Below are positions 18,831 through 48,502 of a stretch of 64,000 nt of DNA, piece by piece. Below the pieces are notes generated by a model. It was given only the letters and a program-made list of their open reading frames with translations. It did not search any database and was not told the origin of the DNA. The first letter of the stretch is position 1. Each line of letters starts with the position of its first letter. The DNA lies in the NCBI GenBank assembly GCA_032718475.1, contig JAUCBJ010007152.1:9381-73380 (forward strand). The letters are read 5' to 3'. The position numbers and the translations under genes were made by a program. The DNA is from Nemertoderma westbladi (lineage: Eukaryota > Animalia > Xenacoelomorpha).

Positions 18831-18927
18831 CAGATATAGACGGTACTCCTATAGCAATACAGCCTATTTTCTATTCGCTCTCCTGGCATTTAACAGTTTA
18901 ATCATCAATACTAGTCTACAATACAGA

Positions 18928-21900: not shown

Positions 21901-23549
21901 AAGAAACCACGAAAGATGAAACACTCTATTACTTGAGATGTTTACTAGAATATGGTGAAACTATAAAAAATAGTTCTGTTACGAGGCTATAAAGCCATTG
22001 AGAATTAATTATCTGGGAAAGATAACATTATATTTCGAGGAAATTCAATTATTATACCAGAAAGTATACGAAATGTTGTTTTACAAGAATTACACTTATC
22101 ACACATTGGAGAGAAAGGGATGTATAGCAACGCAATGGAAGTTTGTTGGTGACCCACAATGAAGGAAGATATAAAGTTGTATACATCAGCCTGTGAAGCA
22201 TGCCAAGCATTTCGCAATTTGACACCTCAAATATACAAACCATTACCGGAACCAACTAGTCCATTTGAGAGAGTACACATTGACCTAGCTGATTACAAAC
22301 ATGATATCTTGTTGGGTGTCATTGATGTATACTCAAAATGGAAAGATGCGCGCTTATTACTGAAAAGGGGTTCCACCCAAATTATATCTGAATTGCGCAA
22401 TATATTTGCTATAATTGGCATCCCGTGCATAATATTCAGTGACAATGGGCCACAATTTGTATCCAATGAGATTGAAGATTTCTTTAGTAATAACGGAATA
22501 ACTCATTGGACCTCAGCACCTTACAACCCTACTTTCAATGGAGCAGCCGAATGTGCTGTTAAAGCCTTCAATAAATCATTGTCGCAAGCAAATCAAGCGC
22601 AAGGAATAGATTCTGAATTCACTATCAGAGACCATATTAGCTTCTTTCTGATGCAGGATCGTAATTCTCCTTATTCCAAAATTGAGTCAACACCAAACGA
22701 AGTGTTATTTCGACACAAAGTTAAAACATGATTCGATCAAAAATTAAATTACCCAATACACAGTTCAGACAAAAATATAAATGGGAAATTCATGATCAAT
22801 GAAGCTGTTCGGATTAACAACTACCATAGACATGGGAGAGGCTAAGTCTTATCGAAATGGATTCCAGGGAAAGTCATTGCTTCTGAAGGTTCTTGCATAT
22901 ATAAGATACAAGTGGGAGACATTATAGTTCGTAGAAACGTAAATCAAATGCGTAGACAAGATAACCCCTGGGCGAAATATGAAGAAAGTATACCAAAAGG
23001 AGAGTCATACAGGGAAGATATTACTAATGAGATACAAGACATCGTTTCACCACCAAGATTACTATCTAAAGATACTAGCGAGAATGGTAGTAAACCAATA
23101 TCTGGAAACGATATGTCAATGACTAGAGATAAACAAAGTACACCTCAACGACAGACTCAAATGCCTATTTGAGGCATCCAAAACTCTTATTAAGGTGAAA
23201 GCATTCATACCCCAACTACACCTCAGGCGAATGTTTCAAATCCTCAAACAAAAACTCTAAGGAGCGGGAAACAATACATTGTCAAATAGACTAAATACAA
23301 ACTACAAACTGAGTTCAAGATTGTTCGTGAGGGGGTGATATTAGGGTTCACATATAACTCTAGCATCTAAGAACTGTCAGTACATATATTATGTAACCCA
23401 TTAACTACTGACTGCCTGAATGTACTGTTATACTGTATGTATATGTATACCAGTAACGAGTATGTCACTTTGCAGTTGATTGCTTACAATGTACTAGACT
23501 CATACATTCATAGACATGAACCTCCATGCTATCTTTTATACGCTTAACA
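18928..23549 (+). mobile_element. Degenerate Ty3/Gypsy LTR retrotransposon; 5' LTR not found
   Basis: Gag (Q..EESITDYAKRL, CCHC knuckles), RT (WATPLV, RICGDYK, KLDL..AY, MPYG), RNase H (TDAS, YSQLDREAL, TDNRPL), integrase (RVHID, SDNGPQF, NGAAE); many stops and frameshifts. PPT gaggggg then TGATA at 23336 starts a probable 3' LTR. Confidence 0.9.
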
Positions 23550-28789: not shown

Positions 28790-29230
28790 ATGTACATACG
28801 TCCGATGAGTACAAACATACTAACGTACATACATACATCTGATGAGTACACCTGTACTAAGGTACATACTATTTAGGTTTAGAGGAACATTACATACATC
28901 TGATGATTACAAATGTAGTAACATACATAGAAGGTACATCCGATGAGTACACCTGTACTAACATATAGAATATATAGGAATAGATGGACATAATTACATA
29001 TGCTCAATGAGTACAACCATACTGACATACACACACACGTACGTCTGATGAGTACACATGTACTAATGTACATAATTACATAAGCACTAATGCCAGGTCA
29101 ATGGGACCAATTAGTAGTACATAATACATACTATATTTAGGATTAGATAAGTACACATTACGTACGTCTGATGAGCACTAAGTGCTAACGTACATAATAT
29201 GCACTAACGCCGGGTCAATGTGACCATATA
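28790..29230. repeat. Degenerate tandem repeats (acatacatctgatgagtaca... units); array continues after the Polinton at 47910-47965
   Basis: Repeated gatgagtaca..tactaa. The unit taatgcc(a/g)ggtcaatgggaccaa occurs at about 29086, 29205 (degenerate) and 47921. Confidence 0.75.
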
Positions 29231-29958
29231 AGTAGTATATGTTTGTATGACACAGCATCAAGGTCACCCATAGCCCATCATTACCATCCATTTCCAGTAC
29301 TGCATCCAATCAGAAGCCACCATTTCAACCTTTACCAGTGGTCGTTATTATTTCATCCAATCAGATGCCAGCATTTCATTCGTAACCATGGTAACTTCTC
29401 AAGTTCCCGCTTATTCCGCTAGAGGCGTTATTAGTCACCCAACGCTAGTACTGCATCCAATCACCAACCTTTATTTTACAGGTGTTCGGGTGTCTACACT
29501 TAGCATCAGGTAACTTCTACTATTTTTCAAATCGCTATTTTTCAGCAACCAGTATTTTCATATTCACCAACCTTTATTTTACAGACGCTAGGGATGTCTA
29601 CAGGTAACTTCTACTATTTTTCAAATCGCTATTTTTCACCAACCAGTATTTTCATATTCACCAACCTTTATTTTACAGACGCTAGAGGTGTCTACATGTA
29701 ACTTCTACTATTTTTCAAATCGCTATTTTTCACCAACCACTATTTTCATATTCACCAACCTTTATTTTACAGGTGCTACGAGTGTCTACAGGTAACTTCT
29801 ACTATTTTTCACCAGTAACTAAATTTAATTTTGCAATTTTTTCAGATAACAAAATATTCAACCGGGTTCGAACTCGGGACTGCTATAACTCCTCACAACT
29901 CACTACTCACTCTTCCATCCAACCTCGAGAGAAAAAGGCGATAAATATCCGAGTTATA
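29231..29958 (+). repeat. Polinton left TIR (728 bp, four internal about 94-bp units)
   Basis: Reverse complement of 47371-47909 plus two extra units; unit starts at 29462, 29565, 29659, 29753. Confidence 0.95.
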
Positions 29959-30684
29959 ACAAAATATTCAATCGATGATTGATATGATATGATATTGTAC
30001 TGTACAGTACGTAGCCTAACCTAACCATCCAATCGTATACCTACCGTAGCTATGATGGTTACTCTTCCTTTCACTTTTTTTCTCTCCCTCTCTCTCTTTA
30101 GTGTTGTTTATTATTGATTGATTGTTGTCATCTCAATGATTTCCTATCCACCCTCCCACCCGGTACTTGTCCACGTTGCTGTACCATCTTGTTTTGCCAC
30201 ATTTCTCAACTCACTCTTCCATCCAACCACGAGAGAAAAAGGCAATAAATATCTGAGTTATACCATAGTCATTGAATTCTTCATCTTCATCACTGGTAGC
30301 AGATGTTTATAAATAGCATCTAGTCCCTTAACATAATTACTATAGCATAGAATACATTAATTCGACTATTAATAATAATCGATTTCTTTTATCATTGTAT
30401 ATGTGACTGGTCGGTCAACTAAGTTGAATATAAGTTAGACATTGTTCACGTTGCATCTGTTACTCGTTACTGCTATTTCACTCTCTAACTCACGCTAATG
30501 TAATAAATCAACCATTAACCTAGAAGGATAATTTTAGCTGTACACTTGCATCTGTTACACGAAACTACTATATTATTCACTGTAAGTCACTCTGTTGTAA
30601 TAAAGCAACCATATAAACTGAAGTTTTACATTCTAATAATCATTTATTTAGTTTTTATTTTTCAAAATAGTTTTCATTCTAATT

Positions 30685-31729
30685 TTGGATTTATTTAAAA
30701 AAAGTTCAAGCAATACTTGGAAATTTACATGTAATAAATATACCTGTAGTATTGTTTATGGCAAGTACTTTATATTACACTCAAGCGATAGCAATGTAAC
30801 AACATGCTTCTCTTACCGGGATACACTCTACCTTCTAGACACCTTAGAAATATTAATCAACCGACAAAAGGAATCATCAGTTTCAAGAGGTAATATTTAT
30901 CCTAATATAGAATTTACAAGAGGAAAGTTAAATATTTCCACCTGCGTTATTACTGAAAACGTATATATTCAGAAGCGAGGCAAATGTCAAATTCTAAACA
31001 AATCACTCATTAATTTATTGCTTCAGAGTAAGACAAAAATATTAGAATTGTTATCACCACCACTCGAAATAATAAATCAGTATTATGTTGTTAATTTAAC
31101 CAATCCATCTTTTGTTGGTTTGGTAAGCAAATATAAAGGAACGGCTTATATGGGACTATGGGAGATTTCAGCTAGATATTCTGATGCTATTGGTCTTAGG
31201 GTATTATAATGGGTTTAACTTAACAGCATCGGAAGTAAATTCATTGTGGTATGAATGGAATTATGAAATTAGTAACGAAGGTGTCTCTTCAGAGCTAGAT
31301 ACGAGCGATAAAGCTTTATCTGACCGACTTAAAGTAAAAATAAATGTACAAGAAAAAAAAGTAATTATTACAGACAAGGAAAGCAAATATTTACAGTTAC
31401 ATTACGATAAAGACATACCACATATAGAGTTTCTCAACGATATGATGGAAAAGGTTTCATCAACTGATATAGCAGATGGTTTCGTGATTCTATATCAACC
31501 AACTTGGAAGTTTAAGGTTAATAAGTCATTTCCAGAAGCAGTTTCATCCACATTTAATCCAAAAACATACATCGAAGAGACATCGAGTGATAGAAAGCTC
31601 AGATCTACGTCTCAAACATCTTCCAATCCCAACAATGATTCTATACCTACAAAGAAAAGAAAAGTTACAAAAGCAAGTGAAGAGGTAGCAGATTACAATA
31701 AGGAACATATAAAAGCAGTATCAGATTGA
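30685..31729 (+). pseudogene. Putative PC4-like ssDNA-binding/coactivator-fold protein, frameshifted near 31200
   Basis: VGLVSKYKGTAYMGLWE ... GFNLTASEVNSL resembles the PC4 pattern V.V.EFKG...I.IRE...GI.L....W..L; the C-terminus has an NLS-like PTKKRK. Confidence 0.5.
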
Positions 31730-32280
31730 TTTATTATTAACTAGAGACTTTTTTTTCAGTTTCACACTGACTAGTAAAGGTAACTTTTTTACACAAAGCA
31801 TGATTATTATTTAGTAGATGAGTAAATTCTTTATTGAGTAAATATTGGTGATAGTTTATATTTAATGTGAGCATGGGATTAGGTATAAAACATTCGCAAG
31901 TAAATGCATGAGTTTATACCTGATATTATAATAAAACATTAGCATGTAAAACCTACTTTATCAATGAAAATTAAAAACGCATTATGCACATCTTGGTTTA
32001 GACTTGATTTTATTATAAAGAATTCAGTTGTAAAAGCAACTTTATTTATGATATTAGTTTCCAATGTAACTGTTATTTATGATTGGTTGGTATAAGTAGA
32101 AACTTGAAATATATATAAAGAGCTCAACTGATTCAATCGAGCTCATTCTGAAAATATTAAATTAATTAAAGTTTAGATATTATATTTTATTTGTGTTGAG
32201 TAGCTTATGAATTTTTTTTTGATTATATATATACTACAATATTCATATTAATTTTAAATTGTTTTTAGGATAATAAAGAG

Positions 32281-35200
32281 ATGGATAAACAATTGAAATG
32301 TCCATTTTGTCCTCTTCAAATTTCTAAACGAAATTATTTAACTCACTTGAAATCACATTTTCAAGAATACAATTGTTTTAATTGTCAAGTGAAATGTTCA
32401 CGTGAAGAAATTTGCAAATGACATGAATCAACTACGGGTTGTAAAGAAATGAAGTTTTGCGTGTATGAAAAAACTTGCCCTACTTGTAATAAAGAGTATT
32501 TATATGAGAATTATTTACATCATGACTGTCACCAACGTTATTATCATGTTAGACCACCACGATGGAACCAAAACAATACTGTCGCATCTAGAAAAAGACT
32601 GAAATCTGGTCAAGGTCCATCAATTTTTAGCCTCGAACGAGCCACACACGATAACCGTTTAGAAATCTATGTTTACAATCTTCCGAATGATGAAGATTTT
32701 CCTGATATTCATTCATCGATACTAAAAATTCTTCCTCATATTAAAAAGTTATTATTAGGAAAACTTAGCGAAATGAATGTACTTAGACCCTGGCTAGGTG
32801 TGAATATACTCATGTATCGATCACATTTTTCAGAGGGTGACCAAGAAGAAACTTTCTATTTTAGTTCTTCAGGTGGTGCAGTTAATACCGTAGATTCACA
32901 TGAAAGTTTCTATATTTGGTTTGAGTATGTACTAGAAAAATTAATGCAAAAAATAGCCATGTTTAACACTCGTGGCTCAGGGTGGCGCGTTAAATCTTTA
33001 TTAAGAGTGGAAATTAAAGTAGCTGAATCCAAGTCTAAGTCACTGGAATATAAAGGTCACGGTTATATGGAGTTACCTAAGGCTCTATCGAGTAAACAAT
33101 GTGTTATAAATATACAAACGGCTGATAATGACTATTTCAAATGGGCTATTATAGCCACAAAATTTAGTAGCAAAGTGAAGATAAACAAAAACCGTACTTC
33201 GTCATACACAGATTACATGAATCATTTGATTTTTGACAATGGGAACAAAGATTATCCAACAGAATGGCAGCTTGCAATTAAACTTTTTGAAAAACAGGAT
33301 TCAGCATATATAATTAATTTATTACTCTACGACAACAATCGAGTATCTATATTAAGACAGGCACCATTTAGTAAAATCACTCCAGATAAAGAGTTATTGA
33401 ATATATTACTTGTAAAAAATAAGAATAAATCAAAACAATCACATTATGTTTGCATAACTAACTTGAATCGCTTGATGAATACAAGAGGTAAGCATATTGG
33501 ATGTAGGAAATATTGTGAACGGTGTTTGACGCATTTTTACAGCAAGGATGTTCTAGAATTTCACCGTCTTACTTGTTATCAAGGAAAAAGTCAAGTTGAG
33601 AAGCTACCGTCTGAAAAAAGAACTCACATTAGCTTTAGAAATTTAGACAGAATATTACCAGCATTGTTTGTAATATATTTTGACATAGAATCTATTTTGG
33701 AGCCAGCTAGCAACAGTAAATTTATTCAGAATCATATTCCATGCGCTGTAAGTTATTTAATTGTCCCTAGTAGCGAATTAATCAATCCACCAAAATTTTA
33801 TTTGAAGACCTTTACAAAAACAATTGACAACAACTGTATTCAAGACTTTTTAGACTCTGTATATAATGACATCACCCAATTATATAAGTGGTCAGAAACT
33901 AACACGAGAGAAAAGATGATACTTAATGATGTAGATAAGTTAAGTTTTTGGGAAGCTAAAACTTGCTTTTATTGCAATGTTTTATTTAAGGATAAATCTG
34001 AGAAAACAAACATCACGCACATATTACTGGTAACTATATAGCAGCAGCTTGTAACGCATGTAACCGCTCTTTATCGTTGAAACGACACATGTATATACTC
34101 GCTGCACACAACTGCAATCACTACGATTTGCATTTTCTTTTACAAGTTGGGTTTACCAATAACAGATATTCCGATTGGTATATAAAGGTAATCCCTAAAA
34201 ATTCTGAAAGGTATATTTCACTAAGTATGCATATACCGGTGAAAGATCAAAAAACTAAAATTGAGCTATGTGTCTTAGACACATATCAATTTTTATCCTT
34301 TTCCCTAAGTACCCTTAAGTATACTAAGTTATAGTTACTACTAAGTAGTATTAAGTATTAAGTTACTACTAAGTTATCCTTTTCCCTTTGTTGATTGTTC
34401 AACAAAGGATATAGATAGCGAGGATATAACATCAGTTCTACCAATTACTGAACAGCAAATGAAATATTTTTATCCGAAATTAAATAATGCAACAATTAAA
34501 CGAAAAGGTATATTTCCCTACGAGTATCTGACAGATTTAAATAAATTCAATGATTCGAAATTACCATCAATAGACAAATTTTATAGTAAATTAACACAAA
34601 ATACCTGTACATCCAAGGAATATAGTTTTGCCAACACATCATGGAGTCAGTTTGACTGTTCAAATCTCAAGGATTATCTTTTAGCATACTTAAAACTCGA
34701 TGTTTGTCTCCTCGCTGATATATTTGAGAACTTTAGGAGAGTATGTAGACAAAACTACGAATTAAAAGTAGTTTATTATTGCAGTATCGCAGCTTTCACT
34801 TATGATTGCACCCTGAAATACAATAAATGTAAGTTAGCATTAATAAAAGATTACCAAACATATAGAGATTTTGAAGCATCTATTAGAGGAGGGGTTTCAT
34901 TCTGTCGAAAGCATTACATAGAATCAAATATACCAGATACTGATAGTTATGATCCAAGCAAGGAAGAGTGTCATATTTTCAATATAGATTTTAATTCCTT
35001 GTATTCGGGTAATTTAAGTAAAAAGCTACCTGTTTCAGGTTTTGAACAACTCAACGTTACATATTTAGAGAATGCTGCTCCAGAAGAACTAATAAACTAT
35101 TTAACAAATCTTGATACTGAAGGGGATATTGGGTTTTTCTTAATTTGTGATTTGAAATATCCCAAAGATATTCATGATCGTATATTAGAACTACCCTTAG

Positions 35201-36366
35201 CCCCAGAACATTTAAGTATAAATGAGACAATGCTTTCACCATATATGAAAGATCAATTTAATAATGTATGTAAACAAAGAGGTACTAATAGCAAGTATAA
35301 GATGTGTGCACCAAAACTTATATTGACACAATTCGATAAAGAATTCTATCATGTAAATTTAAAACTGTTAAAATTTTATATAAAACAAGGTTTAATTGTT
35401 ACTAAGCTCCATAAATTGTATTCTTTCCATCAAGACTTTGTATTTAAACCCTATATAGATTTTAATATTAATCAAAGACGTTTAGCAAAAACTTATATTG
35501 AAACAGTTGTTGCAAAGCTGCTGAATAACTCGTTATTTGGTAAAACAATAGAGAGGATACGAGATCGCTGTAATTTCCGTATCGCTAATAGCAATGAGAA
35601 ATGCAATCAATTGGTGAAACGTATAAATCACGAAAATTTCATGATTTATAACAATTCCTTATCGGGATACTTATTAGTGAAAGACAGCGTGACACTAGAT
35701 AAACCAGTCTATGTAGGTAGTACTGTCTTGGATTTAGCCAAACTTGATATGTATGAGCTGTACTACGATAAATTGCTACCTATTGAGAAAGAATTAAACT
35801 GCCGAATTGAAATTGTAGCATCAGATACAGACTCATTAATTGGTTGTTATTATAATACATCGCAGAATAATTTCTTAATAGCATTAATTAAAAATAATAT
35901 TCTAGATACCTCTAATTACCCCAAGGATCACCCTCTCTACAGCGATAAAAATAAATCCAGACTCTATTACTGTAAAGACGAGTTGTGCTCACAAGAGATT
36001 AAACAAGCAGTATTTTTACGTCCAAAGTTATATTCAATTTTGGAATGGAATAACAAAAATATTCGTAGAGCGAAAGGAATAACAAGAGCTGTCGTGGATA
36101 AAAAAATTTGCCACGAAGATTATTTAAGAGCATATAAGGATAACGAAGAAATTTCCAAGGAAACGCATCAATTTCAGAGTCAATTACACAAAGTGTACAC
36201 TGTAGCACGAGATAAGTTTGCTCTCAGCGCATTTGACGATAAACTTTATTGGGTTAATAAAAATCATTCACTTCCCTGGGGTCACTATCAAACAAAGGTT
36301 GTAAAACCAATTAAAAAAAATATACCTATTTATCGGGAGCCAAACAATGAACTATCAGATAGTTAA
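32281..36366 (+). pseudogene. Protein-primed family B DNA polymerase (pPolB) with N-terminal zinc fingers, terminal-protein/OTU-like region and HNH (EndoVII-like) insert; disrupted
   Basis: In-frame ATG at 32281, CPFC..H..H finger, TGA at 32419. RGSGW; exonuclease YFDIE, HNCNHYD, YLKLDV; HNH-like CFYC..HHAHITG..CNACN across a frameshift near 34010; 73-bp insertion 34317-34389; KGIFPY, DFNSLY, KLLNNSLFGK, SDTDS, PKLY, AKG. Confidence 0.95.
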
Positions 36367-36901
36367 TAAGAATGTAAGTTGCCAGCAAGTGTCAGCAATT
36401 AATTTGAAAGAATAAAAAAATCAATTATCTGGTAAACATATACTCAAACCAAATCAGTTTATATATAAGATATTTGGTGCCACATTATTAATATTTAAAA
36501 ATGGTCGTATTACATTATTAGGTAGTAAGTATAATTTCCAAAAAGTAAAAAAGCATATATTTGATAAAACAAGTATTAATTTGATTTTAATATCTGTTAA
36601 TTTATGTACTTATATTTTTAGTATTAACTCTGTAGTCTATAGGTTATTGATAAACAATACCGGGTTTTATGTTGTCTTTGATAATGTACAACTTCAAGTT
36701 ATATATGAACCTGAAATTTTTAATAATTGCAAAATAAGAATAAATAATACCGTAGTCATTTGCTGCTTTCATACCGGTAAATGTACTTTAATGTGTTCAC
36801 CTAGCAAATTTCACATTTATTACCCTATATTTAGTAAACTGGTTAATTATTTATTAATGTTTGGTGTTGTGACTTTAGGTGTAGAATATATTGGTAATTA
36901 G
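36347..36901 (+). pseudogene. TATA-binding protein (TBP)-like gene with one premature TAA (36413-36415)
   Basis: Hand translation: MNYQIVNKNVSC..INLKE*..GATLLIFKNGRITLLGSK....IYEPEIFNNCKIRINNTVVICCFHTGKCTL. Matches both TBP repeats (TALIFSSGKMVCTGAK; YEPELFPG..LLIFVSGKVVL). Confidence 0.72.
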
Positions 36902-37040
36902 AAGGTAAAAATTAAACATTATTATTTTTCAATCGATCTATCGGTAGTTAGGGAAAACTAACCTCGTTTGAATAAGCATGACTCTCACAGGCTGACTGCG
37001 CGCCTAGCTGACAGTAGCTGCGAGGCTGACTGTGTGACTA

Positions 37041-37942
37041 GCTGCGAGGTTGACCGCATCCTAGCAGCGTGGCTGACTGCGCACACATCTGATTGTAACT
37101 GGTTCACGATATTGTATACATTGGCTTAGTTTGTTACTGCAGGTACTGTTACATTAATACTGTAGTACCGGTACTGCAGTACAATGCTAATAGAAGGAAA
37201 TCAGTATGTTCTATCTGACTATACTGATACAACAACAGTGAAAGTACTGCATTACTGTATTGTTTGGGTAGGTGATCTAATCCCTGTATGTGAGACCCAT
37301 GCGTGCAATCCAGGTCATGACTGCAGTATGCTAATCAAGGTTCGGGTAGACTGCAGTATCCTTATAGGTGAAAAAAAAACAAATACTATTGCATCAGATT
37401 ACTGCTGTACTGATACCGGTAGACCGCAACTACAGTGTTGGAAGAGTAAAACAATGTCGGTACTGATAAAGTGGATGACAGTGGTGGATAAGGGCTGCGA
37501 GGTTGACTGCATCCTAGCAGCATGGCTGACTGCGCACACATCTGATTGTAACTGGCTCACGATATTGTATACATTGGCTTAGTTTGTTACTGCAGGTACT
37601 GTTACATTAATACTGTAGTATCGGTACTGCAGTACAATGCTAATAGAAGGAAATCAGTATGCTCTATCTGACTATACTGTTACAACAACAGTGAAAGTAC
37701 TGCAGTACTGTATTGTTTGGCTAGGTGATCTAATCCTTACATGTGAGACCCATGCATGCAATCCAGGTCATGACTGCAGTATGCTAATCAAGGTTCGGGT
37801 AGACTGCAGTATCCTTATAGGTGAAAAAAAACAAATACTATTGCATCAGATTACTGCTGTACTGATACCGGTAGACCGCGACTACAGTGTTAGAAGAGTA
37901 AAACATTACCGGTACTGATAAAGTGGATGACAGTTATGGATA
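37041..37942. repeat. 453-bp tandem duplication between the convergent gene blocks of the Polinton
   Basis: Near-identical copies offset by 453 (e.g. 37184 vs 37637). Confidence 0.9.
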
Positions 37943-38323
37943 GGCCTATAATAAATTATTGAATTTAACAGTACCGGTACCAACAGGTTAACATTACATC
38001 CTATACAGATTATGTTGCATTTCTGACTAATATTACTAAAGTTATATCACTAGTCAACTACTGTATGTGTTATTAGTTTGCGATGTATAGGATGTTTCGC
38101 AATACCAGTACAACTATATTAGAATGATATCGAGAATACTTACTGTACATGTTACGTCTATATCATATTGTTAAATGTGTATGTTAACCTAGCGCAATTG
38201 ATTCTTTTTTAGAGAACTTGTTGTAAAAAAAATTATATTTTATTATATTTTTATATTAACATCAAGATCATCACCAAAATAAAATTATATTATATCCCAT
38301 CACATTACAAGCTTAGAGTAAAC

Positions 38324-38899
38324 CTACTGTACATCATTCACCGCAGTTATTTCTTTCTGTTTATCACCTGTCTCAGTTAATCGCTTCATATAATTACATA
38401 CCCTCCAATCCTTTTCACTGAGCAGTAATTCAAGCAGCTATCACCATCTTTGTGAAAACTACATTTATCTTCTACAGTAGTTAATTTATCGTGGAAGGGG
38501 CATGGAGTTAAATAATTGTAATATAGTCAAAATATTCCCAATTTGTTCATCGATTTTGGAGCGTAAACATCAAGTTGGGTATTTAATATTGCGGCTTTCA
38601 TCAACCCGAATACATATATTATATTTATTTTTTAATTGTCTCTTCATGTACTTTTTAAGGTCATCTTGCGAAATGTCACCGTAATCCCAAGGTAAATGCG
38701 ATGTAATATCGCATAAATTGTTTACGTGGGCTTCATCTAATGCCGATAAGTTAATATCAGGAGGTCCTTTAATTAAAAACGTCTTTATATTAGTTTTACT
38801 GTATTTAGAATCAAATATAGCAAATTCTTTAAATACTACCGGATATTCCTTATTGTCTATCTTATAATATTGAAAATCAACAAAAATAATATTATCCAT
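38324..38899 (-). pseudogene. Polinton DEDD-exonuclease-like protein, frameshifted
   Basis: IFVDFQ..FKEFAI..PP..HLPWDYG; a second frame continues KCSFHKDGDSCLNYC to a stop at 38324. Confidence 0.6.
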
Positions 38900-38955
38900 T
38901 TTATCGAATAATATATTTAGATAAACAAAAGTTAAATGATTAATTACAACGCCTG

Positions 38956-39396
38956 TTAGTTTATTTTATAATAATTAACAAGCCATTTATATAATATTAT
39001 TTCATTTATTTCCACATTATTTGTAAACGCTCTCATTGGATAGTTTGTGTGAATTTGATTTACCAAGTAATAAAGACAGTATAACCCGCATGTGGTCCTT
39101 CTAGGGTCTTGAAATTGCCTGCGAGTAGTACACCACCTTGCTGAATTTTTCTCAAGCCATTTTTCAATACATCTGTTTGGATATTTTGGACCAAACGAAT
39201 TAAATAATTCAGCTTCATTATCTCGTATATATATAGCCACCCAATGAACACCTGGTAGATGCGCTTTATCGGTATTTACTATTAACCCATAATCTCTTCG
39301 CTTATTATTATCTAATTTAGGTAATTTATTAGATGGAAATGCCCCCAAATAGTGACCACCCACTGGAAACATATCAAGGTCCTCTGTAGATAACAT
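38956..39396 (-). CDS. Adenain-like maturation cysteine protease (PRO)
   Basis: NTD..PGVHWVA, FNSFG (usual Asp is Asn here), Q..TCGLYC. Confidence 0.92.
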   Translation of the reverse strand: MLSTEDLDMFPVGGHYLGAFPSNKLPKLDNNKRRDYGLIVNTDKAHLPGVHWVAIYIRDNEAELFNSFGPKYPNRCIEKWLEKNSARWCTTRRQFQDPRRTTCGLYCLYYLVNQIHTNYPMRAFTNNVEINEIILYKWLVNYYKIN

Positions 39397-39398
39397 AC

Positions 39399-40658
39399 TT
39401 AATCGATATGTATTTCTTTCCTGCTATTTAAACTTAATGATTGATCATAAATATTAAAAACGATTACATTTATGGTCTCAACCAACGGTTCGGCAAATCT
39501 TAATTTTAATTGTCCGTTAGTATATATTGATGGTTGGGGATCCCTAACATAAGCGTCGGCAGTTAGGTCCCAGGATATGAGTGGGCAATTACCTAAGTAG
39601 GTTTCATGGTCTATATTATTACCTCCATAACCGTTAATATATGTATTAATGTTCTTCATTAATTGAGTATACTCAAAAATGTATGTTCCATCTGTAAAAT
39701 TAGGCTCGTATATTACACCACCTACTGGAAGACCGTCTACAATCAGCTCCACGCGTCTAAGGTTAAAATGTTCAAATTTCAATGGGTTACTAGTTAATTC
39801 TCCCGAATATGAATTATTTGTTATAAAACCGATAATAACTAATTTGGGTTTTTTACCATCAAATATGTTTGTTTGGGTGTAATTTGTGGTTTGAGCGGGA
39901 ATAGTAAATGTAGTAACCTCTTTTTTTTGAAATTGATATTCAATATCGTAGCTCTCTAAACCTTTTAGATGGCTGCTTTCTATTACTGGATTAACCTCCA
40001 TTCTAGGGATTAGGATCTTTACTTCATCTAATTCTAGCCGAAGATTTGTCACAGCGTTTGCGTTTGGAGTGATTTTAAAAATAAACGAAGTTGATACTTT
40101 TCTAAAATGCATTCTTAAATCATACCCCGGTTGTATTATTTTACTTTCAGTATCAAAATCAATTGTCAATCCGCTTACAAATTGCATTTGTTTACTAAAG
40201 GCATTGCCAATAGGATGCGCACCGGGATTAATTTCATTTCCGTGTTCGGATAAAGGCTGACGAAAGCCGCCTGCCCCCAGTAGCCCATTTTTTGTTTCGT
40301 ATGTTGTAAATAGTAAATTGGATAAGTACGACTTGTAGAAATAATGGTTATTGCTATTTTCAACCTGCTTCTCATTAAGGTCTATTTTAATATCACTCCA
40401 CATAGTTCCAGAAGGGTAATTCAACATATAAATATGTGAGTTTTCAAGTCGTCTATCCCACTGTACAGTACATTTTGTAATTAATAATGCATCTTGCAGT
40501 TTCGTATAGAATTCATTGGATCTCGGTACAAGAAACGTGACTTCCCTACACTCGCTTCTGAGATTAGATACGGGGTAAATTATTTCATAATGCTTTGCTT
40601 TAAATTCAGTCTGTATTGGCTGTGTAGAAAATAAATTTAATTCCTTAATAATTGACAT
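39399..40658 (-). CDS. Major capsid protein (double jelly roll), intact 419 aa
   Basis: ELNLF..PIQT, Y.YKSYL, PKLVIIGF..YSG..NPLKFEHFNL, WDLTAD, G.LKLRF..PL: Polinton MCP pattern. Confidence 0.9.
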   Translation of the reverse strand: MSIIKELNLFSTQPIQTEFKAKHYEIIYPVSNLRSECREVTFLVPRSNEFYTKLQDALLITKCTVQWDRRLENSHIYMLNYPSGTMWSDIKIDLNEKQVENSNNHYFYKSYLSNLLFTTYETKNGLLGAGGFRQPLSEHGNEINPGAHPIGNAFSKQMQFVSGLTIDFDTESKIIQPGYDLRMHFRKVSTSFIFKITPNANAVTNLRLELDEVKILIPRMEVNPVIESSHLKGLESYDIEYQFQKKEVTTFTIPAQTTNYTQTNIFDGKKPKLVIIGFITNNSYSGELTSNPLKFEHFNLRRVELIVDGLPVGGVIYEPNFTDGTYIFEYTQLMKNINTYINGYGGNNIDHETYLGNCPLISWDLTADAYVRDPQPSIYTNGQLKLRFAEPLVETINVIVFNIYDQSLSLNSRKEIHID

Positions 40659-40660
40659 TA

Positions 40661-41224
40661 TTAAAAAATACTTTTTTCGCAGTGTTTCAGTTTGCCTTTT
40701 TTTATTTTTCTATTTTTACTACGACGATGATGTATGTTCATAGACATTGGTCTAGTCGGTCGCTTTAAATCTCTATAAACTTTTTCTACAACTGATCTTG
40801 TTGATGGTTTCATTTTATTTAATGCTTTATTAATAACCGTATTAGCCTGCTGATGTAAGACCCGCTTACCTTTTGGTATTACGTGTTGTCTCATAAATTT
40901 TGTGGTAAATGGTAAAACTTTTTGTAAAACTTTTTTTGCTAATGGCTTTCCAAATTTTTTCAATGTAGATAAAGCGTCTGTAAATATACCTTCTCCGTGT
41001 TGATTTGTCCGCATACCTCTGCGATAACGTTGAAATCGACATTGTTTTAAGTTTGGACCAAATGCACCAATTTGTTGACCGTAAGGGTCAATATATGATC
41101 CACCTCGAAAAACAGGAACTTGCGTCGAGCCTCTCGTACTTCTACCACCTTTAAAAACAGCAAGATTAGAGTCTGCACCACCATATTGAGGTTTACTGTA
41201 TCTTTGAAATAAATCGGAATCCAT
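40661..41224 (-). CDS. Basic core / membrane-penetration precursor protein
   Basis: QYGG, FKGG, FRGG, QHGEG protease-type sites followed by amphipathic IFTDALSTLKKFGKPLAKKVL; very basic; ends ...SIF. Confidence 0.7.
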   Translation of the reverse strand: MDSDLFQRYSKPQYGGADSNLAVFKGGRSTRGSTQVPVFRGGSYIDPYGQQIGAFGPNLKQCRFQRYRRGMRTNQHGEGIFTDALSTLKKFGKPLAKKVLQKVLPFTTKFMRQHVIPKGKRVLHQQANTVINKALNKMKPSTRSVVEKVYRDLKRPTRPMSMNIHHRRSKNRKIKKGKLKHCEKSIF

Positions 41225-41225
41225 T

Positions 41226-42075
41226 TTAATTTATTTTTTTAAAGTGTAAGGTAATAGAAGTTGTACCGTATTCAAAATTCAAATCTTTTCCTTCTTTGTC
41301 TGTTATTTCAATATGAATGTATGTTATCTTATATGATTTTTTTACAGGGATATAATGAATTGTATCCTTGGCAAATTCTTTATTTATTATACTACCATAT
41401 TTCACGTCATCAGGTAGCCACGCGACGAAGTAAAGCTAAACCAAAATCATTAATATATTCATTTTCAATTATATTAGTAGTCACGTACATGTTCGACTTA
41501 GGTTCTGGAATAGAATTGGGTGGTTGAGGACATAAAAATACCATCTGGTAAGCTTTTTCTTCATTTCCGATAATCTTTATTAAATAACCCTTTATATTAT
41601 TTTTCGTCTTCAAAATAATTTTAAAATTTGGATTTAAATTCGCACCGAGATTATTTTCAGTAATTCCAAAATAATAGGCTAATTGTTGACCTATAAATAA
41701 CTCTCGTACAGTTTTCCCTAAAATAAATTGCAACCTATTTTGCTGAGTATTTTCAACTATTTGTAATTTATCTTTCAACGCCCCAGTGTTAAAATAATCT
41801 ATAATGTCATTGATACTGTAGAACAAGCCGGATGGAAGTGTATCCTCAAAATTTTTTTTCCCTTTTTTTAATAAAATAACATTCTCTACATTGTTATACA
41901 TGGACGGTAACGTGGCTAAGTAAAATATACTTTTTATACCTACCACCCAGTTTTCGTTTGGATTTATAGGTAAGGCACCATGGAAATTGATCTGATAATT
42001 ACTACCGGTATTACAAGGAAAATCAATTGGACACAAGTTACTTGGTAGACTAACATAGAACTCATCCATCACCAC
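41226..42075 (-). pseudogene. Minor capsid (penton) protein 1, two frameshifts near the 3' end
   Basis: FYVSLPSN..FP.N..S.Y, WVVGI, MYVTTNII..LLR; shifted frames give HYIPV and IHIEITDKEG..NF..GTTSITLHFK. Confidence 0.85.
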
Positions 42076-42931
42076 CGCATATTAACTTAAATGTTATAAC
42101 AGTGCGACCACCGTTGAAATTAATTAATTCACCTTGGCTGTCACGTAAAGTAATTAAGATTGTTTTTAGTTTTTTATTCAACAACGGGTAATAGCAAATG
42201 CTCTCGTATTCGTGATTAATATATTTTCGATTTAATTGTGTTAAAGGACAGGTTCTTAAGAGCGGAGCTAAAGCGTCACCAACAAATGAGCTCTTAATAA
42301 TATCTGTATATATGAAGATTGTATCTTTATTACGAGTAATATTCGTAGGATCTGGAAAATCTAAAATCCCAATTTCCGAAATTTTTGGTCCACTATAATT
42401 TAAAATTAATATCGGCTGTTCTATATTGCTTAATTCATCCACTGTAGTGGTACTGTATATATCCCAATTCGGAATACCTGGATGATTCTGATCCAATAAC
42501 TGTTTTAAGCATAGAATTTGTATTAAATCACCGCGTAGACTTAATTGTATTTTTTTCAACTTTTTAGGAAATTTAAATTTAATTCTAGAATTATTTGTAT
42601 TAAAAATGAATTCGAAATCTCTATATTACGCTTCAGAATTAAACAGTTTATTTATATCATCAATAATGACTTGAATAGAGCTATGCATACCAGGAAATAA
42701 ACTGTATAATTTGGCATCTTTTGCATCTACCCCGATTGACAGTGAGATTTGAGTTTGCAAAGTAATATTACTGTATGTTGCTTGATATTGAATCTCGGCA
42801 AGTCCAATTTTAGCGTTTGAACCAATATATAATTCTTCGGCTAAATCAACAGTAAACTCGCTAGGGTTATTATTGGGATATGTGTTTAATGAGCTATCTG
42901 AAACTAGAGTGATATATGTATCTACAGCCAT
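42062..42931 (-). pseudogene. Minor capsid (penton) protein 2, one in-frame stop (42626-42628)
   Basis: YITLVSDSS..YPNN.PSEF.V.L, IGLAEI; IFIYTDII..VGD..APLLR, YYPL, LRDSQGE.INF..GRTVITF; both ORFs share a frame. Confidence 0.88.
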
Positions 42932-42945
42932 TATTATTATTATTT

Positions 42946-43368
42946 AAGCTCTCTCTGCTTGACTCCATTGTATATACTGTACTGTATAATGTTAAACTAT
43001 AGACATCTGTGACCACGTTCATTGTTTCTACAGTATATGCGAGAGATCAATATTTAAAGCAAATGAACTATAGATATTAGACTTACAGCATAGTAATATC
43101 ATTCGAGTTAATATTGATTAATTACGATCATATGTGACCATTATTCGCTTAAGCTCTCTCTACTTGACTCCTTATACATACTGTATAATGTTAAATTATA
43201 GACATCTGTCACCGCGTTCATTACCGCTTCTACAGTATATGCGAGGGATCAATATTTTACTGGCTTTATTTAAAGCGAATGAACTATAGATATTAAACTC
43301 TCAGTATAGTATAGTAATATCATTCGAGTTAATATTGATTAATTACGGTCATATGTGACCATTATTCA
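42946..43368. repeat. About 204-bp direct duplication upstream of the capsid gene block
   Basis: taagctctctct..cttgactcc...atatgtgaccattattc at 42946 and 43150. Confidence 0.85.
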
Positions 43369-43401
43369 CGCAATGAATTAATATACAGTATAAACCTAAA
43401 C

Positions 43402-44490
43402 TTATTGAATATGCTGTACCCACGACTGTTTTTTGGATCCAATGAATCGGACTAAATATTCTTTTTTCCCATTGCGCACACGTTCTTTAAGTTTGCCAAT
43501 ATTTTTGTCAATCGGAAGATAAATATTACTACTCGGGTGGACCTTTTGGAGTTCGTATGAATAAAATGAACCATTTATTATAGCACCAGCGCTGTCCTTA
43601 ATATCGAACATTACCACTGGTACTCTATCCAATCTGACCCGATGAATAATAAATAATTCACGTGTCCATTGTTCTCGATAGCCTTTAGCAAAAGCAGTAC
43701 GCGCGATAGATAAACGTACTGTATCTCCAACTTGAAATTTTATTTTCTTGTGATTAATCTGTCTATATTTCCCATATAATATATTAATTAATTCAGTTTC
43801 ATTAAATTTATTAACTTCAATGGGAGTCATTTGTATAGTCCTATGAAATGACCTATTATAAGCAAAAATAAGCTTCGGTAAAATTTTTATCCAAACATTA
43901 TTTCCCCGTTGTGTGAAAATTTTGAACATCTTTGTTTTTAATGTTCTATTGAATCTCTCGACAATAGCCGCCTTATTCACAGAGTACATTATGTAATAAC
44001 GTACACCAATAGTATCTAAATATTTTCTTACAGATTTATTTAGAAACTCAGACCCTTGATCAGTCGCGATTCTGTTTGGTTTACCTTTCTGGAATATTTT
44101 TTGCAATATACTAATAATTTCAATACCTGTTTTTGTCTTCATACCATAGGCAAAAGCAAGCCGGCTAAAGGCATCAATACATGTTAATATATAGTTATAA
44201 TTATTATTTTGTGATTTATATTGCTGCATATCCACCAGATCTATCATATATATATCTTTTAACCCTCCCGTAAATATTTTAGATGTTGGATAATGATGTC
44301 TACGTGGTGCGTGAAGGGAGTATGTCTTTTGCCCGCTCAACCATTTCTGAGCTTGAGATGGTTTGATGTTTGCGGCTTTTGCTAATTTTGCGATACTTGC
44401 AAAACCTGCAGGCGATGAAGGATCTAAATAAATTCTTAACAGTTTTTTGTCTAAGCTTCGGCTTAAAATCGGTTTCATCTTGAGTGGCAT
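43402..44490 (-). CDS. Retroviral-like (RVE) integrase with C-terminal chromodomain-like tail, intact
   Basis: IDLVD, IDAFSR, TDQGSEF, VERFNRTLK, YNRSFH.TI.MTP, FAKGY..QWT.E, EYLVRF.G. Confidence 0.95.
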   Translation of the reverse strand: MPLKMKPILSRSLDKKLLRIYLDPSSPAGFASIAKLAKAANIKPSQAQKWLSGQKTYSLHAPRRHHYPTSKIFTGGLKDIYMIDLVDMQQYKSQNNNYNYILTCIDAFSRLAFAYGMKTKTGIEIISILQKIFQKGKPNRIATDQGSEFLNKSVRKYLDTIGVRYYIMYSVNKAAIVERFNRTLKTKMFKIFTQRGNNVWIKILPKLIFAYNRSFHRTIQMTPIEVNKFNETELINILYGKYRQINHKKIKFQVGDTVRLSIARTAFAKGYREQWTRELFIIHRVRLDRVPVVMFDIKDSAGAIINGSFYSYELQKVHPSSNIYLPIDKNIGKLKERVRNGKKEYLVRFIGSKKQSWVQHIQ

Positions 44491-44711
44491 CTTTTCGACA
44501 ACCGCAAGTAATATGTATATTCAAATCTCTTATAAAGGGCATCACCGTAAAAACAGCTGAAATTTTTTTATTTTCTTTGAAGTTGATGTTTTGAAGGGTT
44601 TTCTTTTTGTAGTATTTACTCTAGGTATATCTTGAGGTTTTAAATCAGTAGCTAACGGTTTAGTCGATACTAAATATAATTTTCTAAATGTTACTCCCGT
44701 TTTAACCATTA

Positions 44712-45095
44712 TTACCGTCCGCGGTTAATTTTTTTCGCAATAGCCGCTCCAGCGGCGGCGGCACCAGCACTCGCAGCGAGTTTCGCACCAATGCCGAGTA
44801 AGGGTATTAGAAACGGTAGTATGCCTCCAGATTGATTGGTTAACTTTTTTCTGTAACTTGATATATTTTTTGTTTTGCGGTTGAGTGATTTTAATACCTT
44901 ATTATAACGACGAATATTTCTAAATGAATGAGGGGTCAATTGTACGTTACCTTTTAGAACATTTAATGCGGTATTTACAATGAGCCGTATTAATTCGTTA
45001 CTCGCGGTATGGTTAATAAAATAAGTTCTTTGTTGAGGGGTAGCGCTATGTAGAAATTCCAATTCGTTACGATATTTCTGCACAAGTCTATTCAT
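44712..45095 (-). CDS. Core protein with adenovirus pX(mu)-like C-terminus
   Basis: N.LKGNV.L region then QSGG|ILPFLIPLL..A-rich tail; compare adenovirus pX MRGG|ILPLLIPLIAAAIG. Confidence 0.7.
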   Translation of the reverse strand: MNRLVQKYRNELEFLHSATPQQRTYFINHTASNELIRLIVNTALNVLKGNVQLTPHSFRNIRRYNKVLKSLNRKTKNISSYRKKLTNQSGGILPFLIPLLGIGAKLAASAGAAAAGAAIAKKINRGR

Positions 45096-45128
45096 TGTTG
45101 CAACATTATTGAAAATTGTTACAAAATA

Positions 45129-45812
45129 TTAATTATTATTATTATTATTATTATTATTTTCGCTACGTTTATAGTCAATGTAATTTTTAATGTAACAATT
45201 ATGATTACGAAATATATCCGATCTAAATCTTAAATGTTCGGGTGTTTCCTGTCGTAAATCAATTAAGAAATGCGAAAATGGTTCAATAGTCGCATCTTGA
45301 TAGGAATCTACTAAAAATTTGGTCTGCCCTGGTAACATCTGCTTCGCGAAATTTAAAACCGATAAACTGTCTCGCGGATTTTTCATTAATACTAGGGTAT
45401 GGCTATTAATTGATCTTGTGCGGTTATGCTTCCTACCGTAAAACATGTTTTGCGTTATGAAACAAATAAATATATTGGAATGATGAGCAACCTTAGTAAA
45501 CAATACAGTTAAAGCTGTACTAGACTCAGTTTCTATTAATAAATCATCTATAATTAATAAATCTCGACTATTCACTAAACTATCTATATTTTCAGGCAAA
45601 CCTTTGTAAAGGTGAGTAATACCAGGAATAGTCGGGGGATTGCTCCCGTAACAATACAATACTCGTAAGGGGTGTTCGTTGAAGCAGCCATTCTTGTGTT
45701 TAATTAAATTACCAACAAATGTAGACTTTCCGGAACCAGACGGGCCAGAAATTATCATACTCGTTCCCATTTGAAAGTTTAAATTATATGGACCTGAATT
45801 AAAGTCAGCCAT
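45129..45812 (-). CDS. A32/FtsK-like DNA packaging ATPase
   Basis: Walker A GPSGSGKS, Walker B LLIIDD, HH..ITQN, R..N...KNPRD. Confidence 0.93.
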   Translation of the reverse strand: MADFNSGPYNLNFQMGTSMIISGPSGSGKSTFVGNLIKHKNGCFNEHPLRVLYCYGSNPPTIPGITHLYKGLPENIDSLVNSRDLLIIDDLLIETESSTALTVLFTKVAHHSNIFICFITQNMFYGRKHNRTRSINSHTLVLMKNPRDSLSVLNFAKQMLPGQTKFLVDSYQDATIEPFSHFLIDLRQETPEHLRFRSDIFRNHNCYIKNYIDYKRSENNNNNNNNN

Positions 45813-45962
45813 TTATTATTATTATTAAGATATCAATAATACAATCACCATTACTATGTATATATGTAACAATTCACAAAAAACAGCATTTTACAACAAA
45901 AAGTATGTACAACTGTAGTATTAGTATATTTATCATGGCAATCTTTCGTTCTATTTATTACC

Positions 45963-46664
45963 TTATTTGAAAAGATTGTGTAATCGTATACCAGCAATCA
46001 ACAGACATTGTTTTCGATTTAAATAATGTCCACACCAAGTGAGATAACGGTGACATCGTATAAATTCGTTATACTTCTTAGTTTGACATTTACATTCTAT
46101 ACCACGTCCGTAGCATTTAGTACTGGAAATATGACTTAGAGTATGCTCCGTCAAAGTGCGAATTACTCTCATACACAAATCATTGCAAAGAATACCTTCA
46201 TCAAGTTTCAAATAATACTTTTTTGGTTTTATACCTCTTGAAGATGATTCATCTTTATATGTCTTAAAGTAAATATCAAAACTACGTAAATTCTTATTTA
46301 ATTTTACTGTGATATTTTTATGTTCTTCATCAAACAACCAAGGTACCATAAAGCCGCCTTTTTTCACTATATATCGATAAAAAATATTCTGTGATATTGT
46401 AAATAACTCGTTAGGTTCGTTACTTTTTCCTGAAATGTAAATAGAATTCCGCAGCTCTTTCCAATAATATGGATTATATAACTTGTTTACTCTGCAAAGT
46501 GTCTGTACTCTACAAATTGGACAAATTTTAGTATAATCATTAATTTCAACATGTTGATCAATACATGTCACGCAAGTTCCATGTTTATTAACACATATGT
46601 AACAATCAAGATGTTTTAAATTAGAATAACAAATACTACAATTTGTGTTTATTAATATATCCAT
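45963..46664 (-). CDS. RING-finger protein (putative E3 ligase), intact 233 aa
   Basis: CSIC-x9-CVNKH..CVTC-x12-CPICR at the N-terminus; Cys/His-rich C-terminus. Confidence 0.75.
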   Translation of the reverse strand: MDILINTNCSICYSNLKHLDCYICVNKHGTCVTCIDQHVEINDYTKICPICRVQTLCRVNKLYNPYYWKELRNSIYISGKSNEPNELFTISQNIFYRYIVKKGGFMVPWLFDEEHKNITVKLNKNLRSFDIYFKTYKDESSSRGIKPKKYYLKLDEGILCNDLCMRVIRTLTEHTLSHISSTKCYGRGIECKCQTKKYNEFIRCHRYLTWCGHYLNRKQCLLIAGIRLHNLFK

Positions 46665-47370
46665 TTTTCTTAAATAACCAAACCAAAATCGTTAAAATGT
46701 TGATAAAATATTTATAATATAGCTGAAAGAGTCAAGATTCAACTTCATTGTCATCGGTTTCATCAGTGGTTACAAGGGTTTCTTTCGAAATAATAACAAT
46801 AAACAAAGCCATAATTTCATAAGCATTTTTACGATCTAATTTGATCTCAAACTTTTCACATTTATTGCTCGCTATATTACCACTATATTGAGTAATAACA
46901 ATAAAGTTATCTGACATTGATAAAATTGTGAATTTATCTAAATCATCTTCTTCTTTGTAATCTAAAAGGTAATTAGTAGAATCTACCTCACCGAAAATAT
47001 CAATAGATCATAGTTCTTTTCTTGCTTGTTCAGAAAATGTCTATTTTAAAATTAGGTTGTGAAGGACAATAAATAGTGTTACCAATAACAATACAAGTAA
47101 GATTATCTACAGTATTAAATGTATGTCTTATTACAGGCGCAGGTGTATCAGAAGACATTATTATTATTATTATTATTATTTTATGTAATAACAATTAAAT
47201 AACAGCGACAAGACAGATAAATAAATATTAATGATATTTTTTTCTATTCTATTCATATATTTATATAGATCATGTTATATATACAACCAATCAACTAAGA
47301 ACACGTGTCACATGTAACCAATAGAAAGTAAATAATAACAGTAAATGAAGCAAAATAGGTCAGGCTACAG

Positions 47371-47909
47371 TATAACTCGGATATTTATCGCCTTTTTCTC
47401 TCGAGGTTGGATGGAAGAGTGAGTGGTGAGTTGTGAGGAGTTATAACGGTCCCGAGTTCGAACCCGGTTGAATATTTTGTTATCTGAAAAATTGCAAAAT
47501 TAAATTTAGTTACTGGTGAAAAATAGTAGAGGTTACCTGTAGACACTCGTAGCACCTGTAAAATAAAGGTTGGTGAATATGAAAATACTGGTTGGTGAAA
47601 AATAGCGATTTGAAAAATAGTAGAAGTTACCTGATGCTAAGTGTAGACACCCGAACACCTGTAAAATAAAGGTTGGTGATTGGATGCAGTACTAGCATTG
47701 GGTGACTAATAACGCCTCTAGCGGAATAAGCGGGAACTTGAGAAGTTATCATGGTTACGAATGAAATGCTGGCATCTGATTGGATGAAATAATAACGACC
47801 ACTGGTAAAGGTTGAAATGGTGGCTTCTGATTGGATGCAGTACTAGAAATGGATGGTAATGATGGGCTATGGGTGACCTTGATGCCGTGTCATACAAACA
47901 TATACTACT
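47371..47909 (-). repeat. Polinton right TIR (539 bp)
   Basis: Reverse complement of the left TIR with only two internal units. Confidence 0.95.
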
Positions 47910-48502
47910 CATATATGCAATAATGCCGGGTCAATGGGACCAATAATAGTACATAATACGTACTATCGTTGGCACTGAGGGCGCCACGTGACGAGTTGAG
48001 CGGGATATGTAGGCGTGGTAGGATAAATAGTGTAGGCCGCACAAACTAGACTACTATAGCGCATAGCCCAGAGTGCAGACTTAGAGTATTGTTGCAGACC
48101 CAGAAAGCTGTCTGGTGGAAAGTTTGCATAACAATAGGAAAATTGTACTGTAGCTAGTAAACATACAATGAGTAGTGATGAATTACTTATGAAGTAATTA
48201 ACTGATGGGGTGCTACTTAATAAGTAGCAAAGATGTATAGATAAATAATTACAGCAAGGTGAAGAAATCGTATTAACTGAAAATTAAAAATTCTAGAAAC
48301 ATAATTAAAAAGTAATGGACAAAATTGCGAAAGTAGGAAAAAATTGATACGTAACTCAAAAATTAATTGTAAAAAGGGAGATAAAAGTAGATAAAAGGTA
48401 AGCCATCGCTGATTTAATGCTGATTGAAACTGAAATTAGTTATCTCTTGCCCTACTGAGCCTTTGCAAGGCACCACCAGTTCGGTGAGAGAGAGAAATCG
48501 GG

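Follow-up and report, generated by a model that had tools for sequence, protein, structure and literature searches.

A Polinton in the genome of Nemertoderma westbladi carries a TATA-binding protein (TBP)-family gene which, judged from its sequence and homologs, is a genuine, conserved accessory gene of a Polinton family. The gene lies in the 64,000-nt stretch of DNA analysed here (contig JAUCBJ010007152.1; hereafter the window), where it is interrupted by a single premature stop. A preliminary description of the same DNA had proposed a divergent, Polinton-borne member of the TBP family, a proposal now borne out by a Pfam match and by the open homologs that sister copies and other Polintons contain.

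A TBP-family gene overlapping the polymerase gene

36347..36901, plus strand: TBP-family gene, 184 codons, stop at codon 23; PF00352 E 2.7e-9 in two stretches

The frame opens with an ATG at 36347, shares 20 nt with the end (36366) of the protein-primed DNA polymerase B (pPolB) frame, and closes with a TAG at 36899-36901. Its sole premature in-frame stop is a TAA at codon 23 (36413-36415). The preliminary description had read the locus in the same way, as an ATG overlapping the end of pPolB, 184 codons and a single TAA, and the sequence confirms each point. It had also stated that the open reading frame track shows the 3' part only; the stop-to-stop list indeed holds a 161-aa piece that begins at 36416. 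The motifs it had named, YQIVN...INL and YEPEIF...CCFHTGKCTL, are both present in the translated frame.

The Pfam search that it had suggested for the stop-corrected protein was run with X at the stop and returned PF00352 at 37.2 bits (cut-off 22.9), with the two matched stretches corresponding to both repeats. The unbroken 161-aa part matched by itself at E 6.1e-8. Searching the PDB with the first-repeat stretch gave five matches, all of them TBPs (best E 0.004), and a profile built from three Polinton proteins matched 35 of 35 TBPs at E<0.01. Against an independent Polinton TBP, the protein scored 25.2 bits, a value reached by none of 2000 composition shuffles (best shuffle 14.6). The two-repeat assignment rests on Pfam, since no significant internal repeat emerged when the two halves of the protein were compared by BLAST (best E 0.99). 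The second half searched alone produced weak PrfA matches and one further unrelated chain, and nothing else; the PrfA matches (E 0.01-0.04) were dismissed as chance because they are not significant and are far outweighed by the TBP signal.

The host element

29231..47909, no strand: Polinton/Maverick element, 18,679 bp, ends AGTAGT...ACTACT
32281..36366, plus strand: pPolB, in four pieces; homologs, many with PF03175
38956..39396, minus strand: adenovirus-type cysteine protease, Peptidase_C5 E 4e-5
39399..40658, minus strand: major capsid protein, labelled by size, position and related-locus homologs
40661..41224, minus strand: basic core-protein-like gene, a putative label; no significant Pfam match
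41226..42931, minus strand: minor-capsid-like genes, labelled by position and matches to related-locus genes; no Pfam match
43402..44490, minus strand: retrovirus-like integrase, rve E 1.2e-10
44712..45095, minus strand: PW / protein-X-like core gene, Adeno_PX only at E 0.013
45129..45812, minus strand: packaging ATPase, P-loop; Pox_A32 E 0.004
45963..46664, minus strand: RING-finger accessory gene, zf-RING_2 E 0.004, below cut-off

The element is a Polinton by its terminal inverted repeats with AGT/ACT ends and its 6-bp target-site duplication, CATATA, at 29225-29230 and 47910-47915. The inverted arms (29226-29623 and 47517-47914) are 97% identical, which makes the repeats at least 398 nt long. 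The gene at 44712..45095 is labelled PW / protein-X-like tentatively. By sequence matches, the element has the Polinton genes pPolB (broken here), an rve integrase, a packaging ATPase and an adenovirus-type protease. The end motif is that described for Polintons in PMC8097293.

The left arm encodes, on the plus strand, two frames to which no function was assigned, followed by pPolB and the TBP gene. The right arm encodes, on the minus strand, the RING, ATPase, PW-like, integrase, minor-capsid-like, core-like, major capsid and protease genes and one more frame. Decay is evident in this copy: pPolB has been broken into four pieces (32281-32421, whose start is C2H2-like, 32449-34041, 34002-34334 and 34345-36366), and the minor-capsid-like genes are split (42626-42931, 42062-42625, 41410-42069 and 41226-41435). 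Homologs of pPolB numbered 1813 at E<=1e-20, many with PF03175, and the named relatives, 34-38% identical, belong to corals, a pseudoscorpion, a mite and a snake; together with the transposable elements of the flanks, they point to an animal host. The major capsid candidate has 15 homologs at 22-27% identity and matches in 11 of the 114 related loci described below. For the double-jelly-roll capsid genes homologs were found and Pfam gave zero matches, so that their labels are putative.

No TFIIB or RNA polymerase was matched by Pfam among the 24 frames or pieces of the element, a scan that a very divergent or short TFIIB could escape. Nor did the element match herpesvirus-type extra Pol II-binding domains or activator partners, the TBP being a 184-aa core with no match to a partner family.

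Several minor features were recorded alongside. Two overlapping frames at 30652-31729, perhaps one broken gene, had no match in Pfam and local searches; they contain a stretch that, by eye, we take to resemble the PC4 coactivator fold. Two non-coding tandem duplications occur, one of two ~435 bp units 3' of the TBP gene (37000-37920) and one made of a shorter pair, upstream of the minor-capsid-like genes (42950-43400). The Polinton is inserted in a satellite-like repeat (28790-29230 and 47910-47966; 29080-29134 and 47913-47966 match directly at 89%), and its wider flanks (92-7180, 10695-14541 and 17966-22731) hold BEL/Pao with long open frames, a LINE with endonuclease and reverse transcriptase, part of a DDE transposase and a Gypsy-like element that is split.

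The stop and selection on the gene

Sister copies were taken from contigs of four DNA runs under one organism label, which represent at most three samples from three studies; codon 23 is covered by 13, 5, 9 and 2 contigs in the four runs. In each run, virtually all of the summed contig depth differs from the window at this codon, and no other difference is listed within it, from which we read codon 23 as a sense codon in the sister copies. Of the differences recorded in one comparison, the only indel inside the gene is an in-frame loss of 9 nt close to its 3' end; among 40 of 67 differences in another, none is an indel inside the gene. One sister contig has 10 gap letters in the gene, so other broken copies exist.

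With the stop excluded, the sister copies differ at 39 sites, 26 of them third positions. There are 21 synonymous and 18 non-synonymous sites where 19.5% synonymous would be expected, corresponding to a pN/pS of about 0.21 (p 2e-6) over the 40 best-supported of 67 differences, a set in which subfamilies are mixed and five codons with two changes each are read as single changes. One of the variants, at residue 121, is acidic-to-acidic. By these differences, which supply the selection test that the preliminary description had called for, we regard the frame as open and under purifying selection in the sister copies.

The preliminary description had presented the gene as hidden by a premature stop. 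That there is one stop, and that the frame is cut short in the open reading frame list for this reason, holds; the stop itself reads as ordinary decay of this copy and not as a special feature, because pPolB and the minor-capsid-like genes are broken here too, the sister copies have a sense codon, and the differences are mostly synonymous. Its relevance is to annotation only, as gene callers overlook or shorten the gene. Read-through, recoding or splicing around the stop was ruled out, since the sister copies simply lack it. A broken copy would also be expected if a captured host TBP fragment were decaying without function, a reading against which the pN/pS across sister copies speaks directly.

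TBPs in other Polintons

Direct searches with the window protein were empty. A 5.8-billion word search confirmed none of 29 candidates, no match at E<=0.001 was obtained among 1.84 billion representatives, and none was found in IMG/VR, metagenomes, phages or plasmids, which indicates that the protein is highly divergent. Single-sequence scans with pPolB and the major capsid protein (MCP), and an MCP alignment, likewise gave zero loci in IMG/VR. PF00352 was found in none of seven virus records; the control was positive in 4 archaea of 14 genomes.

A pPolB alignment recovered 114 related loci, comprising 34 viral loci and the best 80 of 548 metagenomic ones, many of them short fragments. In a phmmer comparison of the window TBP with the 3572 frames of these loci, one clear match emerged, in L037 (E 1e-6; next 0.22). 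A Pfam scan restricted to 288 of their frames (120-280 aa, non-core, not nested) identified two TBPs, in L037 and L041:

L037:14633-15142, strand not given: L037 TBP, 169 aa, open, PF00352 E 2e-15
L041:8426-8914, strand not given: L041 TBP, 162 aa, open, PF00352 E 7e-8

Both loci are Polintons with open pPolB, integrase and ATPase frames, and they provide the intact copies in other Polintons that the preliminary description had recommended looking for. A detectable TBP is present in 2 of the 39 related loci of 10 kb or more, in keeping with its earlier placement of TBP outside the canonical Polinton core; as most relatives have no detectable TBP, Polintons in general do not need one. Other regulators also occur among the relatives: Bcl-2 with a double PC4 in L045 (4778-5221 and 6229-6849), a VLTF3-like late transcription factor at L040:5447-6085 and an F-box gene at L104:644-1087.

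The window and L037 proteins are 24% identical (E 5e-9), and the window and L041 proteins show no detectable relation (E 0.12). In a FastTree phylogeny of 96 polymerases with midpoint rooting, from which 19 of the 114 loci were left out for short coverage, the window and L037 fall in one eight-leaf clade (support 0.97) and L041 falls elsewhere; the six other leaves of that clade are fragments of 1.5-8.4 kb. This distribution fits an old gene of one clade combined with either a second capture or many losses, and the L041 TBP is possibly an independent capture. The position of the gene varies as well, from 3' of pPolB in the window to before the ATPase in L037.

These homologs bear again on the notion of a captured fragment decaying without function. 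The very high divergence of the window protein from all TBPs, with no match among 1.84 billion representatives, would suit such a fragment, but the signature residues are kept despite that divergence, and an open homolog with the same altered motif occurs in a distant Polinton of the same clade (L037). Taken with the selection on the sister copies, we consider this explanation very improbable and already largely refuted.

Residues and predicted fold

Residues were mapped to the yeast TBP chain (numbering = chain + 60) from tool alignments and by eye. In these alignments, Asn7 and Asn85 correspond to the two minor-groove Asn of yeast TBP, and Phe50, Phe125 and Phe141 correspond to yeast Phe116, Phe190 and Phe207, so that three of the four intercalating Phe are kept. 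Phe50 is aligned directly in a PDB match, and Phe141 is aligned through L037. The conserved L5.1 Phe, which by our reading is yeast Phe116/Phe207, is kept in both lobes. The position of yeast Phe99 is occupied by KPNQ (34-37) in the window and by KPYQ in L037 in a manual alignment, leaving the fourth Phe missing. As we read it, retention of three of four Phe bars the term canonical TBP and not membership of the TBP family.

The stirrup, YEPEIF (120-125), retains both glutamates, Glu121 and Glu123 (yeast Glu186 and Glu188). The stirrup of L037 reads YEPELF; that of L041 reads YNIEIF, with one of two acidic positions left, and its N-lobe is reduced. The Pro after the stirrup is kept in L037 and is Asn in the window. 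The helix-2 region of the N-lobe is ~8 residues shorter than in yeast and still has five Lys in residues 60-76, so that a loss of contacts with host regulators does not follow, and the helix-1 region of the C-lobe is ~9 residues longer than in yeast TBP by manual alignment.

Compared with cellular TBPs (PF00352; yeast 1ngm/1ytb, archaeal 1mp9 and 2z8u), the window protein is thus alike in its two repeats and length of about 180 aa and, by alignment, in its LIF.NG and CF.TG strands, YEPE.F stirrup, three of four Phe and both Asn. It is unlike them in having KPxQ for the first Phe, Asn for the post-stirrup Pro and altered helix-region lengths, in being borne by a mobile viral element, and in being too divergent for single-sequence detection in large databases.

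AlphaFold gave low-confidence models from one sequence (pLDDT 41.0) and from two (33.9), both of which place strands at residues 87-121, the lengthened helix-1 region of the C-lobe, where TBP has helix. With these models, Foldseek returned zero matches at E<=0.001 and the best VIA Z was 4.8. Models of such low confidence, and the empty fold searches made with them, neither show a saddle fold nor count as evidence against one.

Precedents and other viral TBPs

In the accessible literature on Polintons, Mavericks or adintoviruses, a single direct precedent for a TBP was found. Starrett et al. 2021 (PMC8502044; preprint 10.1101/697771) carry the label 'TBP' in the Fig. 5 legend for a MELD virus with an adintovirus-like PolB. 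That element resembles ours as a Polinton-related element with a TBP-like gene; the difference is that the precedent is a legend entry only, with no mention of TBP in the text of section 3.4. The term is also absent from the accessible text of PMC8097293, 10.64898/2026.10.13.758929 and 10.64898/2026.06.19.733378. A Polinton TBP is therefore not wholly unreported, and, as far as the text of these sources extends, it is barely noted in print, the one direct precedent found being a legend label.

Two designs of viral TBP invite comparison. NCLDVs also encode RNA polymerase, whereas in the 18.7-kb window element the TBP has an acidic stirrup and the scanned frames yielded a match to neither TFIIB nor polymerase. 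Large dsDNA viruses are a known source of viral TBPs (PMC7221094, Ravarani et al. 2020; PMC11410667, Nomburg et al. 2024), and those of NCLDVs, including ASFV B263R, are like the window protein in being divergent and virus-encoded with DNA-binding signatures kept. According to PMC7221094, TFIIB is bound through the two glutamates of the stirrup, and most large-virus TBPs in which these are lost are paired with a viral TFIIB. NCLDV TBPs differ in being mostly accompanied by a viral TFIIB and in having a variable stirrup; the accessible text of PMC7221094 has no occurrence of 'Polinton'.

In KSHV, ORF24 mimics TBP and drives the late genes through host Pol II (PMC12529657). As a model of how such a protein might work, it and the other beta/gamma-herpesvirus mimics combine a viral TBP fold, a variant late TATA box and host Pol II. 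ORF24 is unlike the Polinton protein in being multi-domain, part of a six-member complex, devoid of the stirrup glutamates and able to bind Pol II directly (PMC12529657); the Polinton protein keeps the glutamates and consists of the TBP core alone, and no helper gene was matched. Beside the NCLDV TBP and TFIIB pairs and the herpesvirus mimics, it would represent a third viral TBP design, a bare TBP seemingly built for host TFIIB.

Promoters and proposed role

32082..32120, plus strand: host-type promoter-like site, reverse CCAAT (ATTGG) plus TATATAAAG, upstream of pPolB

We propose, at about an even chance of being right, that the Polinton TBP recruits host TFIIB and Pol II to element promoters, probably those of late genes. 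The preliminary description had suggested two possible roles, redirection of host polymerase and a decoy, both of which stay hypothetical. The proposal draws on the kept stirrup, the lack of a TFIIB or polymerase match in the 24 frames, a candidate box in L037 and the herpesvirus precedent. From the layout, the protein would be made early together with pPolB from a host-type CCAAT and TATA promoter, for which 32082..32120 is the candidate, serving the arm that holds pPolB and TBP. With three of four intercalating Phe and both minor-groove Asn kept, it would bind and bend AT-rich boxes of element promoters. Its preferred box would differ from that of the host given the change of the first Phe to KPxQ and of the post-stirrup Pro to Asn; Pro at the latter position favours T at the first box position (PMC12529657). 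The acidic YEPE stirrup (Glu121, Glu123) makes host TFIIB a likely partner, to which, with RNA polymerase II, the element promoters would be handed. The targets suggested by the layout are the late genes of the opposite strand, for capsid and packaging.

In the window element, an identical 10-mer, TGATTGGTTG (reverse CCAAT), stands at the start of each arm and a TATA-like word comes after it, at about 32080-32120 (plus strand) and about 47260-47292 (minus strand); both sites are candidate early promoters. Cluster-leading genes on the minus strand (45812, 42931 and about 47158) have (AAT)n runs directly before the ATG, and TATATACA lies 45-52 nt upstream of the ATPase and of the first minor-capsid-like gene. 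The word ATACAT precedes five of nine late genes (nominal p 0.001), a signal that falls to P 0.28 after correction for word choice; other top words gave P 0.32 and 0.63. This lack of a significant shared upstream motif in the window element counts against recruitment to element promoters. TACATA, for which the three TBP-bearing elements rank second to fourth of 40, was not counted because it was chosen afterwards among five patterns. In one promoter-word test, starts were a few bases off for 2 of 15 genes in the window, 1 of 13 in L037 and 1 of 13 in L041.

The L037 element differs in this respect. Across L037:11153-18662, the coding strand carries CATAAAC 12 times and the opposite strand never. 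It lies upstream of seven of 13 genes (ATPase, PW-like, integrase, PLA2 and others, and not TBP), a count matched by none of 1000 random sets; with automatic gene calls the enrichment is p 0.013 only, still the best of 40 loci. The word is upstream of none of 15 genes in the window element and none of 12 in L041, so the evidence for a TBP-specific box derives from L037, one relative among the three elements.

If only the absence of a significant motif in the window element is considered, a decoy or host shut-off factor would also be compatible, one that occupies host TATA boxes or titrates host TFIIB and so damps, for example, antiviral transcription. Of the motifs, the TFIIB-binding stirrup is preserved best, the N-lobe has changed, and the patchy occurrence recalls Polinton accessory genes such as Bcl-2 (L045) and F-box (L104). 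In L037 a TBP occurs together with a TATA variant that is confined to one strand and lies ahead of packaging, integrase and other genes, which fits activation better, and a general TFIIB sink would presumably also harm the element's own host-type promoters; we regard a decoy as fairly unlikely.

The location of the gene could instead point to an architectural DNA bender that serves replication, integration or packaging and not transcription, acting for instance on AT-rich terminal repeats: the TBP gene shares its start with the end of pPolB here and lies directly beside the packaging ATPase in L037, and its DNA-contact residues are largely kept. A pure bender would presumably not need the acidic stirrup, whose known role is TFIIB binding (PMC7221094) and which is retained in the window and L037; in L041 a single acidic position is left. 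We judge this role distinctly unlikely.

Returning to recruitment of host TFIIB and Pol II, we tentatively suggest, as something that falls short of probable, a one-gene early-to-late switch in a clade of animal Polintons, in which a remodelled N-lobe reads a lineage-specific TATA variant and the stirrup engages host TFIIB and Pol II for the capsid and packaging genes. The box would be CATAAAC in L037 and perhaps an ATACA-type word in the window, with TBP and box diverging together between lineages. If true, this would imply a programmed phase of virion production, and no smaller viral takeover of Pol II promoter choice would be known; Polinton particles have not been observed (PMC8097293). 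A TBP apparently under purifying selection offers a concrete handle on capsid-gene activation, consisting of one small protein and one candidate box.

Promoter classes are what would distinguish such a switch from a general TBP substitute, which would raise the output of every element promoter, early ones included, or keep them active when host TBP/TFIID is limiting or silenced (e.g., in the germ line), with no switch involved. The canonical TATA-like sites at the start of both arms, and the fact that no late-specific motif is significant in the window element, would suit a substitute. Canonical TATAAATAG is found in L037 at the KilA-like gene, which has CATAAAC as well, and at one neighbour; set against the seven CATAAAC genes, these two suggest two promoter classes; we therefore hold a general substitute to be unlikely. 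The pairing of a Polinton TBP with a candidate box is seen most clearly in L037 and its CATAAAC word, which makes this element the most suitable test case.
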